From a virus (lineage: Duplodnaviria > Heunggongvirae > Uroviricota > Caudoviricetes), in the IMG/VR virus record IMGVR_UViG_2534681773_000020: a stretch of 20,815 nucleotides of DNA; one strand, given 5' to 3'. Numbering within the stretch: position 1 is the stretch's first letter; each line of letters starts with the position of its first letter. The position numbers and the translations under genes are program-made. Shown here one piece after another: positions 4,529 through 20,013 of this stretch. The notes beneath the pieces are model-generated. The model worked only from the letters and a program-made list of their open reading frames with translations, did no database searches and was not told the DNA's origin.

Positions 4529-4586
4529 AAAAAGGGCGGCAGAGCAGTCACGGAGTAAAACTGATACCGCCAAACGTCACCAGAAA
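4529..4586 (-). ncRNA. dicF: DicF-like small regulatory RNA (about 53 nt plus U-tract)
   Basis: Reverse complement of 4534-4586 reads TTTCTGGTGACGTTTGGCGGTATCAGTTTTACTCCGTGACTGCTCTGCCGCCC followed by TTTTT, matching the recalled E. coli DicF sequence; located between upstream ORF and dicB as in the Qin dicB operon. Confidence 0.6.
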
Positions 4587-4890: not shown

Positions 4891-5277
4891 TTAATGATTA
4901 ATTGATATTTTGTTATTTGATTCAACTTTCCCATCGGATGTGTGATGCTTTAAATCACAGGAATTAATACTGCTCGCTGTAAAATGATTTTCAAGGGGAG
5001 CTATTCGAATCCCTTTCTTTTTCATTAACAAGCCAAATCCTTTATTAATGATGTCCATTAATTCCAGGAAGTATTTTTCATGTAAATCCTGGTTATCAGA
5101 GAGCTGCTTCTCTTCGTACAGACCGATAAAGGCACGACGCACGTTACCGGATATAGTATCGATGGTTTCTTTTTCTACGGTACTCAGGTCAAGAGTCGCC
5201 AGTTGAGAGCGAACCACATTCGATGCCATTTCCTGGAATGGTACTGGTAAATCTTTAAATTCCATCGTCAACCTCAT
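4891..5277 (-). CDS. Hypothetical protein (128 aa; alternative start at 5265 with GAGG at 7 nt)
   Basis: ORF in early-left operon orientation; start overlaps stop of upstream YdfA-like gene (ATGA); no recognisable motif. Confidence 0.5.
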   Translation of the reverse strand: MRLTMEFKDLPVPFQEMASNVVRSQLATLDLSTVEKETIDTISGNVRRAFIGLYEEKQLSDNQDLHEKYFLELMDIINKGFGLLMKKKGIRIAPLENHFTASSINSCDLKHHTSDGKVESNNKISINH

Positions 5278-5429
5278 CAGTCAGTGTTTCTGGTTAACCA
5301 GCGACGCGCGCCAGCTTCAGTTTTAAACGTTTTGCTTCTGGTATACGTCATCGCGGTAAACGTGCCGTCCTGGTTGGGAAACACGCCGTACACCAGAGAT
5401 TCGTTGTTGCCAAGATCGATAGTATCCAT
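5277..5429 (-). CDS. ydfA: YdfA-like small protein (50 aa), first gene of leftward early operon
   Basis: Internal ATG at 5429 preceded by GAGG at 5 nt; translation MDTIDLGNNESLVYGVFPNQDGTFTAMTYT... recalled as similar to E. coli YdfA; ORF track extends to 5516 with a weaker start. Confidence 0.45.
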   Translation of the reverse strand: MDTIDLGNNESLVYGVFPNQDGTFTAMTYTRSKTFKTEAGARRWLTRNTD

Positions 5430-5554
5430 GCTGACCTCATTTCCCCTTAACGCTGGGGTAGCGGAACTAAAAACCTGCTGCGCTGTTATACAAAGTGTTC
5501 CCGCCGTCATGTTCATACGCCTCGGGCTGGCTACTTACCCCCTGACCACTGCTT

Positions 5555-5628
5555 GGTAACTCGAAGTATTGCCCGGCGTTCTGTGGGGCGGGGTGGGTTG
5601 GTATGTTGTTAAGGTAACAAGAGTTACC
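5555..5628. promoter_or_regulatory. Putative left operator/promoter region: perfect palindrome GGTAAC-AAGA-GTTACC (5613-5628) and imperfect copy GGTAAC-TCGA-AGTATT (5555-5570)
   Basis: Same GTAAC-N4-GTTAC motif recurs at oR side of cI; lies between cI terminator and first leftward gene. Confidence 0.45.
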
Positions 5629-5671
5629 TTTCGAGTCAATACAATGTTGCAAAAGGTACATTTGAGGGCAT

Positions 5672-5698
5672 GAAAAACCCGCAATGAATGCGGGTTCT
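5672..5698 (-). terminator. Intrinsic terminator downstream of cI
   Basis: On minus strand: AACCCGCA-TTCAT-TGCGGGTT stem-loop followed by TTTTC; immediately after cI stop. Confidence 0.5.
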
Positions 5699-5701
5699 GA
5701 C

Positions 5702-6418
5702 TCAGTCTAAGTATTGATGTATTTGTGAAACTTTACCTTTAATGGTGTAACCACCATTCAGTTCGATGGGTTTGTAAAGCGGATTCAGTGACAACAGATA
5801 GATGTTTGGTCCGTCAATCGCAACTTTTTTTAGTGTTACGTTTGGAGTTCCTTCCAATTGGATTAAGATTATTTTTCCCACCAGTTCTCTAATGTTACTT
5901 GAGCATGGTGTGATCAGCACGGTAGATCCGTCGGGGATGGTTGGGAGGCCGTTAGAGTTTGTCATCGCATCTCCCTCAACATGCAATAAAAAAGAGTTTT
6001 CAGCGGTTTTTGTCATGACATCAACCCAATTCTTAATACCAGGAATCTCGGTTACTGGACAACTCATATCCCAATAACCAGCCTGTTCCCACGTTAAAAC
6101 GGGCAACCGGGCGATGTTGTCACTAATGTAAGGGTACTGATTCAGACGCAGATCATCGGCTTTATCGTGACCGTCCTTTCCATAAAGAATCCATTCAGGA
6201 GATTTGGAAAGCAATTTTGACAGTAGATACAAATTCTCACCGTCAGGTTTTGAAGAGCCATTTTCCCATTTTGTTACGGATACACGAGATATGCCGATTG
6301 CTTTCGCAACCTGCTGTTGGGTTAATCCAACGTCTTTTCGACGATTCCGAATACGTTCGCTGATAGTGTTTTTCATGTAACCAATGTTACTACCAAGTGA
6401 TGTTGCTATGGTTGACAT
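5702..6418 (-). CDS. cI: CI-type phage repressor (N-terminal XRE-family HTH, C-terminal S24 LexA-like autopeptidase)
   Basis: 238 aa; HTH QQQVAKAIGISRVSVTKWENG; C-terminal S24-like region with GDAM and KK motifs; no SD upstream of ATG, consistent with leaderless translation as for lambda cI from pRM. Confidence 0.9.
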   Translation of the reverse strand: MSTIATSLGSNIGYMKNTISERIRNRRKDVGLTQQQVAKAIGISRVSVTKWENGSSKPDGENLYLLSKLLSKSPEWILYGKDGHDKADDLRLNQYPYISDNIARLPVLTWEQAGYWDMSCPVTEIPGIKNWVDVMTKTAENSFLLHVEGDAMTNSNGLPTIPDGSTVLITPCSSNIRELVGKIILIQLEGTPNVTLKKVAIDGPNIYLLSLNPLYKPIELNGGYTIKGKVSQIHQYLD

Positions 6419-6438
6419 TGTTATGTAACTATTGTTAC
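6377..6438. promoter_or_regulatory. Putative right operator/divergent promoter region: GTAAC-CAAT-GTTAC (6377-6390) and GTAAC-TATT-GTTAC (6425-6438); TTGACA hexamer at 6412-6417
   Basis: Two inverted-repeat sites with the same half-sites as the oL palindrome, spaced 48 bp centre to centre, spanning the cI start and the cI-cro intergenic region. Confidence 0.45.
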
Positions 6439-6467
6439 CCTTCTACTCGAAATAACAGGAGAGTTTT

Positions 6468-6683
6468 ATGTTCAAAGATGATGTTCTGCGCTATTTCAAA
6501 AAAAAGCGACTAGTAGCTGAGGCTCTTGGAATTTCACATGTGGCTGTTGTGCGGTGGAAAGCAGTTATTCCCAAACTTCGCGCAATGGAACTGGATGAAA
6601 TTACTAACGGTGAATTGAAATACAACCCAGAACTTTACAAGAAGCAGGATAGCACCTCAAACGAAGGAAAGAATGATTCATGA
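6468..6683 (+). CDS. cro: Cro-like regulator (YdaS-family HTH protein)
   Basis: 71 aa, divergent from cI; AGGAGAG SD; HTH segment LVAEALGISHVAVVRW; followed by coupled ydaT-like gene. Confidence 0.8.
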   Translation: MFKDDVLRYFKKKRLVAEALGISHVAVVRWKAVIPKLRAMELDEITNGELKYNPELYKKQDSTSNEGKNDS

Positions 6684-7105
6684 AAATCAAGCATGAACAC
6701 ATCCGCATGGCGATGAATGTCTGGGCGCATCCGGACGGCGAAAAAGTACCGGCTGCGAAAATTACCAAAGCGTATTTCGAGCTGGGAATGACGTTCCCGG
6801 AACTGTATGACGACAGCCATCCGGAAGCCCTGGGTCGTAATACCCAGAAAATTTTCCGCTGGCTGAAGAAAGACACTCCTGATGCGGTTAAAAAAATTCA
6901 GGCGTTGTTACCGGCGATCGAAAAAGCAATGCCGCCTCCGCTGGTGGCCCGAATGCGCAGCCACAGTTCGGAATATCACCGGGAGCTTGTCGAGCGACGG
7001 GAGCGCCTGGTGAAAGATATCGATGAGTTTGTTGCATCAGCGATCGTTCTGTTCGATCAGATGAATCGCGGTGGTCCGGCAGGAAATACTCTGCTTGTGC
7101 ATTAA
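6680..7105 (+). CDS. ydaT: YdaT-like protein (CII-position regulator / putative toxin YdaT family)
   Basis: 141 aa; N-terminus MKIKHEHI as recalled for Rac YdaT; ATGA overlap with cro stop; AAGGAAAG SD. Confidence 0.7.
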   Translation: MKIKHEHIRMAMNVWAHPDGEKVPAAKITKAYFELGMTFPELYDDSHPEALGRNTQKIFRWLKKDTPDAVKKIQALLPAIEKAMPPPLVARMRSHSSEYHRELVERRERLVKDIDEFVASAIVLFDQMNRGGPAGNTLLVH

Positions 7106-12238: not shown

Positions 12239-12475
12239 CGATATGGGAATTCCCATATCGGGTAAAAACGGTTTGCGGTAAAGCGAGAGTTAAGTAGAAT
12301 TGCTGCGGGTGCTTGAGGCTGTCTGCCTCGGGCATGCCACCGTAAGGCAGACAGAGAAAAGCCCCAGTTAACATTACGCGTCCTGCAAGACGCTTAACAT
12401 TAATCTGAGGCCCAATCTATGCTTCACAAACGTAGGTTAGCCTCTTACGCGCCGAAAGGCAAGGAGAAGCAGGCT
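12239..12475. promoter_or_regulatory. Structured leader/regulatory region upstream of hok-like toxin (candidate mok-leader and antisense Sok-like RNA region)
   Basis: 22-bp perfect palindrome CGATATGGGAATTCCCATATCG (12239-12260); 10-bp inverted repeat CTGTCTGCCT/AGGCAGACAG (about 12319-12354); direct repeat TTAACATTA x2 flanking GCGTC/GACGC hairpin (about 12368-12402). Confidence 0.4.
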
Positions 12476-12631
12476 ATGAAGCAGCAAAAGGCGATGTTAA
12501 TCGCCCTGATCGTCATCTGTTTAACCGTCATAGTGACGGCACTGGTAACGAGGAAAGACCTCTGCGAGGTACGAATCCGAACCGGCCAGACGGAGGTCGC
12601 TGTCTTCACAGCTTACGAACCTGAGGAGTAA
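12476..12631 (+). CDS. hokD: Hok/Gef-family type I toxin (51 aa)
   Basis: MKQQKAMLIALIVICLTVIVTALVTRKDLCEVRIRTGQTEVAVFTAYEPEE matches the Hok family signature and the recalled HokD/RelF sequence; AAGGAGAAG SD; in-frame upstream extension from 12419 may correspond to a mok-like frame. Confidence 0.8.
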   Translation: MKQQKAMLIALIVICLTVIVTALVTRKDLCEVRIRTGQTEVAVFTAYEPEE

Positions 12632-14128: not shown

Positions 14129-14494
14129 ATGACTGAACGCATAGAATTTGTTTTGCCTTACCCGCCAACGGTGAACACTTACTGGCGACGTCGTGGCAGC
14201 ACATATTTTGTATCAAAAGCCGGTGAGCGTTATCGCCGTGATGTGGCGCTTATTGTTCGCCAGCAGCGGCTGAAATTAAACCTGTCCGGAAGGCTGGCGA
14301 TAAAGATTATTGCAGAGCCACCGGATAAACGTCGTCGTGACCTGGACAATATCCTGAAAGCACCACTGGATGCGCTGACGCATGCCGGACTTCTCATAGA
14401 CGACGAGCAGTTTGATGAAATCAATATTGTGCGCGGTCAGCGCGTTCCTGGGGGACGGCTGGGCGTGAAGATTTACAAAATTGAGAGTGAGTGA
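14129..14494 (+). CDS. rusA: RusA Holliday junction resolvase
   Basis: 121 aa; start abuts previous stop; RusA-family motifs LPYPPTVNTYW and RRDLDNILKAPLDAL. Confidence 0.85.
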   Translation: MTERIEFVLPYPPTVNTYWRRRGSTYFVSKAGERYRRDVALIVRQQRLKLNLSGRLAIKIIAEPPDKRRRDLDNILKAPLDALTHAGLLIDDEQFDEINIVRGQRVPGGRLGVKIYKIESE

Positions 14495-15045
14495 TCGTAA
14501 ATATGATATACCCGGAAATTACAGGCAAAAGCGGCGAGCATTTACGTCTAAAAACGCTGGAAGCCGTCTGGATCCAGGGGAAATTACGGATGTGGGGGCG
14601 TTGGTCGTATATAGGTGGTGGCAAACCAGGAAATATGTTCAATCAGTTGCTGGCATCCAAAAAACTGACAAAAACCGCAATCAATGAAGCCCTGCGTAGA
14701 ATCAGGGAGTCAGGGATTGATAAACCAGAGCTGGAAGCATTCTTGCGAGAGATGATCGCTGGCAGACAGAAGAGCTGGTTGTCTCACTGTACTGATGCAG
14801 AGGCGTTACGCATTGATGGGGTGATAAGTAAAGCGCTTGCACGTTATCCTGGATTGATTGATATCCTGCGGCAAAGGTACGAAGGGCGGGGGATGAGTAA
14901 ACGCAAAATGGCTGAATTGTTGAATGAGGTGCACCCGGAATGGTGTTTTAGTACATGCGAAAAGCGAATTGCTAATTGGTTGGCTGTTGCTGAATATGCG
15001 CTATACATCCCTATGCGAGAATCGTTTGCTCAAAAAATGTCTTGA
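14491..15045 (+). CDS. Q: Late gene antiterminator Q-like protein
   Basis: 184-aa ORF (GTG 14491, or ATG 14503) directly upstream of a short intrinsic terminator and the late genes; position and size match Q of 82/Qin-type phages. Confidence 0.7.
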   Translation: MIVNMIYPEITGKSGEHLRLKTLEAVWIQGKLRMWGRWSYIGGGKPGNMFNQLLASKKLTKTAINEALRRIRESGIDKPELEAFLREMIAGRQKSWLSHCTDAEALRIDGVISKALARYPGLIDILRQRYEGRGMSKRKMAELLNEVHPEWCFSTCEKRIANWLAVAEYALYIPMRESFAQKMS

Positions 15046-16723: not shown

Positions 16724-16799
16724 GGCCCTTTAGCTCAGTGGTGAGAGCGAGCGACTCATAATCGCCAGGTCGCTGGTTCAAATCCAGCAAGGGCCACCA
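16724..16799 (+). tRNA. ileZ: tRNA with anticodon CAT (Ile2 lysidine-type or Met; resembles ileX/ileZ class), CCA encoded
   Basis: Cloverleaf folded by hand: acceptor GGCCCTT/AAGGGCC, D-stem GCTC/GAGC, anticodon loop CTCATAA, T-arm GCTGG-TTCAAAT-CCAGC. Confidence 0.85.
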
Positions 16800-16899
16800 T
16801 CACAAACCGCCATTAGCTTATCAGGAAGAGCAGACGACACCATAACAGGGTTGTTGGTGCGGGGGCGGGTCCCCGATGGCGGTCCATTATCGGTATTCT

Positions 16900-16976
16900 G
16901 CGTTGTTAGCTCAGCCGGACAGAGCAATTGCCTTCTAAGCAATCGGTCAGTGGTTCGACTCCACTACAACGCGCCA
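16900..16976 (+). tRNA. argO: tRNA-Arg (anticodon TCT), CCA encoded
   Basis: Acceptor GCGTTGT/ACAACGC, D-stem GCTC/GAGC, anticodon stem ATTGC/GCAAT with loop CTTCTAA, T-arm AGTGG-TTCGACT-CCACT. Confidence 0.85.
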
Positions 16977-17741: not shown

Positions 17742-17922
17742 TTTTTTTATTTGCTGTTTATTAAAAACACTTCTGCATGGTGAATCCCCCTGTGCGGAGG
17801 GGCGACTGGTGTAGGTAGCATTTATTATGTTATAGGCAAGCCGACGCGGGTTCAGTGACACCGGCTGAATTCACCGGGAGGCACCCGGCACCATGCAAGA
17901 AAAAGAATGTGTATGCAAACAT

Positions 17923-17948
17923 GCCCCTCTCCGGAGGGGCATTTTTTA
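17923..17948 (+). terminator. Intrinsic terminator
   Basis: GCCCCTC-TCCG-GAGGGGC stem-loop followed by ATTTTTTAT. Confidence 0.55.
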
Positions 17949-18162
17949 TGGGTAAAAAATGCCCGAATGGGTTCGGGCAATAGCATGAGATACTGATATT
18001 GTTGTGTTGTTATCGTGTGGATTTTAACCAGGGTTTATCAGGCTGCGCAACTGCGTGGCCTTTTTTCATTTCTTGGGCTGTAGTCCCCGTGTGTCATTCA
18101 GGCTTCCGGACTACAGCCCACTCCATATCTGATTTAATACACTATCCCGGCCGGGAGGAATA

Positions 18163-20013
18163 ATGACATTTAAACATTATGATGTTGTCAGGGCGGCGTC
18201 GCCGTCAGACCTTGCGGAAAAGCTGACACACAAACTGAAAGAGGGCTGGCAGCCGTTTGGTAGTCCGGTGGCCATAACCCCTTATACCCTGATGCAGGCG
18301 ATTACAGCAGAAGGTGATGTGGTGGTCAGTGGTGCAACTGAGCCGGATTGGTACTACGTCATCGTACTGGCCGGGCAATCCAATGCCATGGCTTACGGTG
18401 AAGGGCTTCCGCTGCCGGATTCATACGATGCTCCGGATCCGCGCATTAAACAGCTGGCGCGCCGCAGTACAGTTACGCCGGGTGGGGCTGCCTGCAGATA
18501 TAACGATATTATTCCGGCCGACCACTGCCTGCATGATGTGCAGGATATGAGTACGCTGAATCATCCGAAGGCAGACCTGAGCAAAGGGCAGTACGGCTGT
18601 GTCGGCCAGGGCTTACATATTGCCAAAAAACTGCTTCCGTATATCCCGAATAACGCGGGGATCCTGCTGGTACCATGCTGTCGTGGTGGTTCGGCATTCA
18701 CCCAGGGCGCGGAGGGGACATTCAGTGCGGACGCGGGGGCCAGCCAGGATTCGGCACGCTGGGGTGTGGGTAAACCGTTATATCAGGACCTGATTGCGCG
18801 CACCAAAGCTGCATTACAGAAGAACCCGAAAAATGTGTTGCTGGCGGTGTGCTGGATGCAGGGAGAGTTTGACATGAGCGCCGCCACCCACGCACAGCAA
18901 CCTGCGCTGTTTACAGCCATGCTGACACAGTTTCGTGTTGACCTCTCCGTGTTTAACGCGCAGTGCCATGGTGGCAGTGCTGCAGATGTGCCGTGGATTT
19001 GTGGTGACACGACGTATTACTGGAAAAATACATACGCTACCCAGTACGACACCGTGTACGGCGGGTATAAAAACAGGGAGAGTGAGGGCGTTTATTTTGT
19101 GCCCTTCATGACAGACGGTAACGGCGTCAATACCGCCACTAACGCGCCGGCAGAAGATCCGGATATTCCGGCATCAGGATATTACGGTGCGGCATCGAGA
19201 ACGAATGGAAACCAGGTATCATCAAACCGCCCGACACATTTCAGTTCATGGGCGCGCAGGAGCATTATTCCGGATCGTCTGGCAACCGCTATTCTGAACG
19301 CAGCCGGGCGCACCTCAGCCTTCATCAGTGGTAAGGCACCGGAAATCAAACCCTCGCCCGGCGGCAACACGCCATCGGGTCCGTCTGCAGATACGTCCGT
19401 TCGCACAATCTCCCTGCTGCCGACAGCCGGAGAGGCTGCTGCGCAGGGCTGGACCATTAAGGACGGCGGAATTCAGTTGTCGGGTGGTGTATTTAAGATC
19501 GCCAAGCAGAGCAATAAAACCTGGTCCCTGACGCATCCGGTGGATGACGCAATTACCCTGCTGACACAGGGCGGCAGACTGACCTGTAAGTTCCGCCTGT
19601 CAGGCGCGCTGACCAACAATCAGTTCGGGCTGGGGATTTATCTGTATACGGATGCTCCCGTTCCTGATGGTGTGGCGATGACGGGTACCGGTAATCCGTT
19701 CCTGATGTCGTACTTCACTCAGACCACTGACGGCAGAGTGAATCTGATGCATCACAGGAAAGCCGGAAACACGAAGCTGGGGGAGTTCGGCGATTACGGT
19801 AACGACTGGCAGACGCTGGAGCTGGTGTTCACCGCCGGCAGTGCCACGGTTACTCCGAAACTGAATGGAGTGGCTGGCCCGGCATTCCAGGTCATAAAAG
19901 ACAGTCTGACACTGGGGCTGAATGCGCTGACGCTGACGGATATTACCAAAAATGCAGCGTATGGCGTTGAGATAGAAAGTCTGGTGCTGGAGATAAATGC
20001 ACCGGCAGCATAA
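18163..20013 (+). CDS. nanS-p: Prophage sialate 9-O-acetylesterase (NanS-p type; N-terminal DUF1737-like region plus SGNH/SASA esterase domain)
   Basis: 616 aa; GGGAGGAA SD; N-terminus MTFKHYDVVRAASPSDLAEKL; SASA block VLAGQSNAMAYGEG; the position downstream of the late tRNAs is where Stx phages carry this gene. Confidence 0.8.
   Translation: MTFKHYDVVRAASPSDLAEKLTHKLKEGWQPFGSPVAITPYTLMQAITAEGDVVVSGATEPDWYYVIVLAGQSNAMAYGEGLPLPDSYDAPDPRIKQLARRSTVTPGGAACRYNDIIPADHCLHDVQDMSTLNHPKADLSKGQYGCVGQGLHIAKKLLPYIPNNAGILLVPCCRGGSAFTQGAEGTFSADAGASQDSARWGVGKPLYQDLIARTKAALQKNPKNVLLAVCWMQGEFDMSAATHAQQPALFTAMLTQFRVDLSVFNAQCHGGSAADVPWICGDTTYYWKNTYATQYDTVYGGYKNRESEGVYFVPFMTDGNGVNTATNAPAEDPDIPASGYYGAASRTNGNQVSSNRPTHFSSWARRSIIPDRLATAILNAAGRTSAFISGKAPEIKPSPGGNTPSGPSADTSVRTISLLPTAGEAAAQGWTIKDGGIQLSGGVFKIAKQSNKTWSLTHPVDDAITLLTQGGRLTCKFRLSGALTNNQFGLGIYLYTDAPVPDGVAMTGTGNPFLMSYFTQTTDGRVNLMHHRKAGNTKLGEFGDYGNDWQTLELVFTAGSATVTPKLNGVAGPAFQVIKDSLTLGLNALTLTDITKNAAYGVEIESLVLEINAPAA

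Follow-up and report, generated by a model that had tools for sequence, protein, structure and literature searches.

The lambda cI mRNA is the classical case of a leaderless transcript. In the known switches of lambdoid phages, Cro shares its operators with the repressor, and activators of the CII type use direct repeats at pRE, which lie inside or after cro. The locus described here, which belongs to an E. coli prophage, shares with lambda the divergent arrangement of cI and cro, palindromic candidate operators overlapping the predicted pR, pRM and pL, the S24 C-terminal domain of the repressor, a terminator after cI that is followed by pL, and the lack of a Shine-Dalgarno sequence before cI. 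It differs from lambda in several respects. The operator core comprises 14 bp here and 17 bp in lambda. No N gene is present, and a YdaT-type protein is the CII analogue. The two sites of oL are spaced by 32 bp and lie on either side of the -35 region. If the cI mRNA is leaderless, the O_R2 position is located near -32.5 and not near -42 as in lambda; therefore, a lambda-style activation of pRM should not be assumed.

Another described system to which the locus can be compared is immC of phage P22. The repressor is 35-36% identical to C2 over its full length, the N-termini of both proteins align within one residue, and the N-terminal domain matches the structures of P22 C2 and lambda cI. Cro belongs to the P22_Cro family. 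In P22, O_R3 abuts the c2 ATG and the operators are spaced by 25 and 23 bp, as is the case here. By contrast, the P22 operators are 18 bp long and of the type ATTTAAG..CTTAAAT (e.g. ATTTAAGATGACTTAACT), whereas the motif found here is GTAAC-N4-GTTAC, and the recognition helix reads SNVAISQWE in P22 and SRVSVTKWE here. Furthermore, with respect to the operators, pR lies nearer to cro by about 12 bp, the middle site of oR is degenerate, and alanine takes the place of the catalytic serine.

Two E. coli prophages provide further points of reference. The leftward operon of the Qin prophage has the same content as the one described here (a DUF1391 gene like ydfA, the sRNA DicF, and dicB), and its repressor DicA is encoded where cI sits. 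DicA is a short HTH protein that is not known to have a peptidase domain, and it has other operators. The other is the EHEC prophage CP-933P, also lambdoid and from E. coli, whose PaaR2-YdaS-YdaT switch likewise includes a CII analogue of the YdaT type and has its operators at pRM, pR and pL. There, YdaT acts as CII analogue (Jurenas et al., mBio 2021, PMC8630535). The repressor gene of this YdaS/YdaT-type switch was found to be leaderless by 5'-RACE combined with N-terminal sequencing, and annotation easily misses the true start of such repressor genes (PMC8630535). In contrast to the locus described here, PaaR2 is an unrelated repressor without S24 domain, the operators are 18-bp inverted repeats with the consensus GTTTAGTAA, and a toxin-antitoxin pair is located downstream of the repressor gene.

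In the literature searched for the GTAAC-N4-GTTAC motif, no description of this operator was found. The switch is an ordinary one of the P22/lambda type. It differs in its operator sequence, in where pR lies relative to the operators and in its decayed middle site; it has a CII analogue of the YdaT type, and it lacks N. It reveals no new principle beyond lambda and P22. What it offers are concrete sites for the prediction of immunity groups and of cross-regulation among EHEC prophages.

The prophage, its probable operators and their conservation

Judged from its gene content, the window, i.e. the whole stretch of DNA that was analysed (20,815 bp), represents a lambdoid prophage of E. coli and is of the Qin/DicB type. 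An N gene is absent from the following set:

5702-6376, minus strand: cI repressor gene, 224 aa, with HTH_3 and Peptidase_S24 domains; revised start (Pfam, annotation and comparative start assignment)
6468-6683, plus strand: cro, P22_Cro family, 71 aa (Pfam PF14549, E = 2.9e-16)
6680-7105, plus strand: gene of the YdaT family, CII analogue in such immunity regions (Pfam PF06254)
Leftward operon: DUF1391 (ydfA-like) gene, DicF sRNA and dicB, exonuclease, integrase
Further prophage genes: replication genes, RusA, Q-type antiterminator, methylase, tRNAs, NanS-type esterase

cI and cro are divergent and 91 bp apart. The control region has a match of 100% identity in a prophage beside yccA of E. 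coli O55:H7 USDA5905. At a coverage of at least 80%, it is present in 702 of 5,426 complete E. coli genomes. In the phage collection searched, no phage with this immunity region was found at the DNA level, and at the protein level the relatives are at most 44% identical. From the comparisons presented below, we are confident that the stretch 5611-6441 constitutes the immunity switch of this lambdoid prophage and that it follows the plan of P22 immC. Repressors of the SRVSVTKWE family are found in about 700 of the 5,426 complete E. coli genomes as well as in prophages and phages of many Enterobacterales, among them ZF40 and prophages of Yersinia, Buttiauxella and Erwinia.

The predicted operators of the control region, all without strand, and the positional homologue of O_R2 are as follows:

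5614-5627: O_L1, strong predicted operator GTAAC-AAGA-GTTAC (exact motif; 22.8 bits, rank 2 in the window; positional homologues in relatives)
5646-5659: O_L2, weaker predicted operator GTTGC-AAAA-GGTAC (11.7 bits, rank 4)
6377-6390: O_R3-equivalent, strong predicted operator GTAAC-CAAT-GTTAC (exact motif; 19.7 bits, rank 3)
6402-6415: O_R2-equivalent by position, GTTGC-TATG-GTTGA, i.e. GTTGCTATGGTTGA (assigned by spacing; overlaps the -35 region of pR; -1.7 bits, rank 54)
6425-6438: O_R1-equivalent, strong predicted operator GTAAC-TATT-GTTAC (exact motif; 23.7 bits, rank 1; located in the spacer and -10 region of pR)

The initial annotation had described a perfect palindrome at 5613-5628, which is indeed read in the sequence as GGTAAC-AAGA-GTTACC; its arms stay perfect to 8 bp (AAGGTAAC/GTTACCTT, 5611-5630). 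The two right-side sites were also described correctly. The motif search that had been suggested along with them yields, for the window, three matches of GTAACNNNNGTTAC in 20,815 bp, located solely at 5614-5627, 6377-6390 and 6425-6438; none of 100 shuffles with preserved dinucleotide composition contains the pattern. From the base composition, 0.02 occurrences of GTAAC-N4-GTTAC are expected per window, 0.0008 per 825 bp and about 5 per 5.4-Mb genome. To score all 20,798 window positions, a weight matrix was used that had been trained on the sites of the relatives alone, with the window excluded. The three exact copies and 5646-5659, a site missing from the list of the initial annotation, occupy the first four ranks, followed by the best background position with 5.9 bits at rank 5.

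The middle position of oR, 6402-6415, is degenerate. Since it scores at background level, its occupancy is uncertain and a tripartite oR is not established in the window. As a confident O_R2 it was rejected for the window, and it is kept solely as a positional homologue. In many relatives, a better site, GTAACTGTTGTTTG, with 8 of 10 matching bases is found at this position.

The loci compared comprise 20 genome loci from about 15 genera (including Yersinia, Buttiauxella, Erwinia, Kluyvera, Rahnella, Edwardsiella and Arsenophonus), seven closer loci and phage ZF40. The repressors of these about 30 related loci are 43-89% identical and have the recognition helix SRVSVTKWE in common. A protein search extended the repressor homologues down to 44% identity, and in all of them the second HTH helix, RVSVTKWE, is invariant. 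In every relative locus, GTAAC-N4-G(T/G)TAC occurs at the same places: two copies precede the repressor gene with a start-to-start distance of exactly 48 bp, and one to three copies follow it. Across about 160 kb of related loci, a search with at most one mismatch found a single match outside the oR and oL positions (in L019). Because of these positions in the relatives and the ranks obtained with the weight matrix, the motif is a conserved feature tied to this repressor family.

The layout of the right side is the same in all loci. In the direction of cro, the CAT of the repressor start (opposite strand) is followed by the proximal operator, 11 nt, the middle element, 9 nt, the distal operator, CTT..., the Shine-Dalgarno sequence and the cro ATG, which corresponds to centre-to-centre spacings of 25 and 23 bp. 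In 28 of 29 related loci, the proximal oR site adjoins the repressor ATG; in L019, it is 3 nt away. On the left side, the recurring order is upstream site, TTGAC, downstream site and TAC(A/C)TT. The second oL site is present in nearly all relatives, 31-35 bp from O_L1 and in the same arrangement.

A more distant example is provided by phage mEp390. Its repressor is 41% identical, and in helix 3, S is changed to N and K to G. The layout is the same, with half-sites that are changed symmetrically to GTAGG-N4-CCTAC. This indicates co-variation between helix 3 and half-site, as it should occur if the half-site is read by the helix.

The sites are thus real, exceed chance expectation by far and keep their positions across a repressor family whose recognition helix does not vary; the best promoter-like elements of the region overlap with them. 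The GTAAC-N4-GTTAC palindromes are very probably the oL/oR binding sites of a prophage CI/Cro switch. The assignment to oL and oR of a dimeric CI-type repressor, as put forward in the initial annotation, holds with three corrections, because the motif is found in the same places in about 30 loci, all with repressors that share an identical recognition helix. It is further supported by the location of the sites on either side of an HTH_3 plus Peptidase_S24 gene that is divergent from a cro gene of the P22_Cro family, and by their overlap with the best sigma-70-like promoters predicted to point left and right. The comparison defines the operator consensus of the SRVSVTKWE repressor family, (A)(T/G)GTAAC-N4-G(T/G)TAC, and the layout of its control region.

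Putative promoters, cI mRNA and the proposed switch

A standard promoter/terminator scan of 5200-6800 found no promoter. The -10 hexamers of pL (TACCTT) and pR (TACCCT) match the consensus at 3 of 6 positions each, and this is the reason why pL was missed. Since a relaxed enumeration was needed after the standard scan, the promoter calls remain weak. The elements considered here are:

5611-5639, minus strand: putative pL with -35 box TTGACT (5639-5634), 17-nt spacer and extended -10 box TGn-TACCTT (5616-5611)
6412-6441, plus strand: putative pR with -35 box TTGACA (6412-6417), 18-nt spacer and extended -10 box TGn-TACCCT (6436-6441)
5673-5697, minus strand: GC-rich hairpin with U-run, serving as the intrinsic terminator of cI transcription

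In the relaxed enumeration, the pL pair is the best promoter-like combination in 5560-5700 and the pR pair the best one in 6350-6480. Among the relatives, TTGAC..-17-TAC(A/C)TT is kept at pL, and TTGCTA-17-TACCTT is found at the place of pR. The putative pL would drive the DUF1391(ydfA-like)-DicF-dicB-exonuclease-integrase operon, and the putative pR cro and the ydaT-like gene. Transcription would be expected to begin near 5604 from pL and near 6448 from pR. O_L1 lies between the -35 and -10 boxes of pL and overlaps the latter, and O_L2 lies just upstream of the -35 box, 32 bp from O_L1 (centre to centre). Given the positions of the putative pR elements, the distal oR operator fills the pR spacer and the -10 region, and its right half-site contributes TG and TAC of the extended -10 box. 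The terminator starts 5 nt past the cI stop codon (5702-5704). Its fold has a predicted energy of -16.7 kcal/mol (z = -3.6), and none of 200 shuffled sequences was as stable.

The absence of a Shine-Dalgarno sequence before cI had been noted at the outset and is correct; cro, by contrast, has AGGAG at 6457-6461. If cI starts at ATG 6376 (see below), the proximal oR site occupies positions -14 to -1 and therefore abuts the start codon outside the gene. The operator thus fills the entire stretch, which contains no purine-rich tract and leaves no room for a Shine-Dalgarno sequence. On the cI strand, it reads G-TAACAT-TGGTTAC-ATG and comprises a TAnnAT hexamer, TAACAT, at -13 to -8. This hexamer within 6377-6390 is a possible -10 box of pRM. 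In mEp390, TAGGAT is found at the same place despite the different half-sites. Our preferred reading, to which we give a slight edge, is that the cI mRNA is leaderless and starts at the A of ATG 6376. It has precedents in lambda cI and, by experiment, in the repressor gene of CP-933P. The ATG of L019, 3 nt further from the operator, counts against this reading. No convincing -35 box can be assigned to such a leaderless pRM (ACCATA is found), and several equally weak promoters can be drawn further upstream.

The following model is based on homology with lambda and P22, from which we infer the binding itself, the sequence in which the sites are filled, cooperativity or looping between oL and oR, and where pRM is located. 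A dimeric CI of 224 aa with the helix SRVSVTKWE would recognise the 14-bp sequence GTAAC-N4-G(T/G)TAC, and the P22-type Cro would presumably do the same. CI bound at 6425-6438, i.e. in the spacer and extended -10 box of pR, would exclude RNA polymerase so that cro and ydaT are switched off. The site at 6377-6390 covers the likely core and start of pRM, and its occupation would result in negative autoregulation at an excess of CI and in shut-off of pRM by Cro. On the left side, CI at 5614-5627 would occlude the -10 box of pL. Together, this strong site and the weaker one at 5646-5659 bracket the pL -35 box, and their occupation would repress the operon encoding the ydfA-like protein, DicF, DicB, exonuclease and integrase. 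As for the weaker partners at 6402-6415 and 5646-5659, any occupation of them would be cooperative.

A more compact variant of this switch can be envisaged, although we regard it as rather unlikely. Here, all operator half-sites would double as core promoter elements (TGnTACCyT at pL and pR, TAACAT at a leaderless pRM), and the switch would operate with just two strong oR sites, O_R2 being decayed, and with a repressor that is a naturally catalytically dead (Ser to Ala) S24 protein. If this variant is true, the widespread lineage of this prophage in E. coli and Salmonella would be uncoupled from RecA-mediated induction, and the lysogenic state would be locked or triggered in an alternative way.

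The cI start codon and alternative readings of the sites

Both PGAP and the longest open reading frame put the start of cI at 6418, which yields a protein of 238 aa. Based on this start, the initial annotation had placed one copy of the palindrome inside the beginning of the cI coding sequence. The comparison favours ATG 6376 instead. Ten relatives have no in-frame start codon upstream of the ATG that adjoins the operator, and most of them have a stop codon 39 nt upstream. Several database homologues begin at the MK... methionine. The residues conserved in the long reading frame (..T..T....NIGYM) are the translation of the pR -35 box and of the operator, GTAACATTGGTTAC. In addition, the N-terminus of P22 C2 is structurally defined, and its residue 6 aligns with residue 5 of the short form (MKNT...). 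Because of these four lines of evidence, cI is placed at ATG 6376; in all likelihood, it starts there, encodes 224 aa, and begins 42 bases later than annotated. The 238-aa form was rejected in view of the stop codons in the relatives, the starts of the homologues and the alignment with P22 C2. This corrects a systematic over-extension of start codons in the annotations of these repressors.

The same observations bear on the reading originally proposed as a whole, namely four operators including 5555-5570, a 238-aa cI from 6418 and an intragenic site at 6377-6390. We consider it improbable. The 238-aa frame is open and annotated by PGAP, and several relatives have an in-frame ATG at -42, but the ten relatives without upstream start, the homologues annotated from MK..., the coincidence of the extension's conserved residues (NIGY, T..T) with operator and promoter DNA and the alignment of C2 with the short form all speak against the long protein. 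The fourth operator, described as an imperfect copy at 5555-5570, could not be upheld. In this sequence, GGTAAC-TCGA-AGTATT, the left half is perfect, while the right half agrees in 2 of 6 bases; it is not matched when 2 mismatches are allowed. Its core (start 5556) scores 0.6 bits and ranks 25 among the 20,798 positions, i.e. at background. The sequence around 5556-5569 is kept in the closest relatives L025, L027 and L028, where the flanks are conserved, too; L024 retains only CGAGTTAC. More distant relatives have no positional homologue of it, in contrast to 5646-5659, for which there is one. The region is part of the transcribed leader of pL (roughly +35 to +50), and in the predicted fold of the leader it pairs with the AAGUAG motif.

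It is very improbable that the sites are read by a regulator other than CI, be it Cro alone, the YdaT-type CII analogue or some host factor. The assignment to CI over Cro is deduced from sequence, and Cro shares the operators in the known switches. However, in hosts of many genera the motif is found strictly together with repressors of the SRVSVTKWE family, and CII-type activators use direct repeats at pRE and not dyads at pL and pR. In the literature searched, the sole other GTAAC-containing site noted is the UmuDAb box of Acinetobacter. This box has a GTAAC core and a different construction; as the same operator it was rejected, because its architecture is unrelated.

The least probable explanation, that the repeats are shared core-promoter modules (TGnTACCyT extended -10 boxes) copied between pL and pR and do not bind a protein, would account for the right half-site and its flank forming the putative extended -10 box of pL and pR alike, but it conflicts with the conservation of both half-sites as a dyad, including the left half that has no promoter role, with the third full copy that adjoins the cI ATG where no strong promoter is found, and with the symmetrical change of the mEp390 half-sites together with the recognition helix.

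Repressor active site and pL leader RNA

Two further observations were made on the repressor and on the pL transcript. In the repressor, the serine nucleophile of the S24 domain, aligned to S149 of lambda CI, is replaced by alanine (Ala137; GDAM in place of GDSM or GNSM; codon GCG at 5966-5968). Both the lysine (LKK) and the Ala-Gly cleavage site (QAG) are kept. The protein does not have the Ser-Lys catalytic dyad of an SOS-inducible LexA-like S24 repressor and is nonetheless a member of the family. Loss of autocleavage is predicted from this replacement. The same Ser-to-Ala exchange is present in the main E. coli cluster (499 members), in an E. coli variant with 89% identity and in a Salmonella homologue with 68% identity. 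Serine is kept in variants with 87% and 65% identity and in all distant homologues.

Directly after pL, most relatives contain an unannotated structured RNA element of about 65 nt. The same element is found in the phages SfV, SfII, SfIV, ST64B, phiNP, ZF40 and YeP1-3. RNAalifold predicts a closing helix and two hairpins, the first of which is small; five pairs of the structure covary. The stem of the second hairpin is formed e.g. by CCCCA/TGGGG, CCGGT/ACCGG or CTACC/GGTAG. The window contains a diverged copy around 5495-5545 on the minus strand, with AAGUAGCC..GAGGCGUAUGAA in common. The window's own pL leader folds no better than shuffled sequences (z = +1.0). A search of Rfam gave no match for the element or for the pL leader, and local alignments to the pL and pR regions of HK022 remained at noise level, without similarity to putL or putR. 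Since these phages lack N, a put-like role of the pL leader RNA in antitermination is an obvious hypothesis.

The repressor cI and its probable operator-proximal start

The S24 peptidase domain of the window's cI repressor has Ala in place of its catalytic Ser (equivalent to S149 of lambda), giving GDAM rather than GDSM.

5966-5968, minus strand: Ser-to-Ala codon (codon 137 of the 224-aa cI)

Owing to this replacement, cI is predicted from its sequence to be a repressor that neither cleaves itself nor responds to induction through RecA-stimulated cleavage. cI still has the Ala-Gly site as well as the catalytic Lys. The exchange is common to the main allele cluster in E. coli (with 499 members), an 89% variant and a 68% Salmonella homologue, and is absent from the 87% and 65% variants and from distant homologues.

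The 238-aa RefSeq/PGAP form of the repressor appears to be over-extended by 14 codons (6377-6418, minus strand): Its conserved 'NIGYM' is translated operator DNA. Similarly, gp10 of phage ZF40 has been annotated too long and overlaps cro. Phage mEp390 (L029, 1470-1540) displays the same layout as the window, with an operator adjoining the repressor ATG. However, its half-sites read GTAGG-N4-CCTAC, unlike those in the window, and this difference is accompanied by exchanges in helix 3 compared to the window's repressor (S to N, K to G).

The pL operon and its leader RNA

Both DicF and dicB are located downstream in the operon driven by the putative leftward promoter pL. Consequently, the operators found at pL would control a cell-division-inhibition module.

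4534-4585, minus strand: DicF sRNA (Rfam, 76.7 bits)
5277-5516, minus strand: DUF1391 (ydfA-like) ORF, open for 79 aa from ATG 5516

PGAP calls a 50-aa DUF1391 protein starting at ATG 5429. This shorter form is more likely than the 79-aa form, because the upstream ATG falls within the conserved leader element (..GGCGTATGAAC..).

Directly 3' of pL, relatives carry a conserved structured RNA of ~65 nt, which is also present in phages SfV, SfII, SfIV, ST64B, phiNP, ZF40 and YeP1-3.

L006:3306-3382: structured RNA, related locus
L013:3303-3379: structured RNA, related locus
L030:2305-2381: structured RNA, phage ZF40 (further loci carry it, too)
Window ~5495-5545, minus strand: diverged copy

Compensatory changes were found at five pairs. 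The RNA is without annotation or Rfam entry and has no sequence similarity to the antiterminator RNA put of HK022. Lambdoid phages that lack N may use it as a put-like antiterminator.

Other features of the prophage

12307-12481, plus strand: sok antitoxin RNA (hokD locus)
14491-15045: Q antiterminator
16724-16973, plus strand: two tRNA genes
17749-18015: sRNAs STnc100 and AgvB (anti-GcvB)
18163-20013, plus strand: NanS-type esterase, downstream of Q

Among the examined ORFs of the window, no stx gene was identified. The arrangement of sok, tRNAs, STnc100/AgvB and the NanS-type esterase presumably resembles that of EHEC lambdoid prophages.
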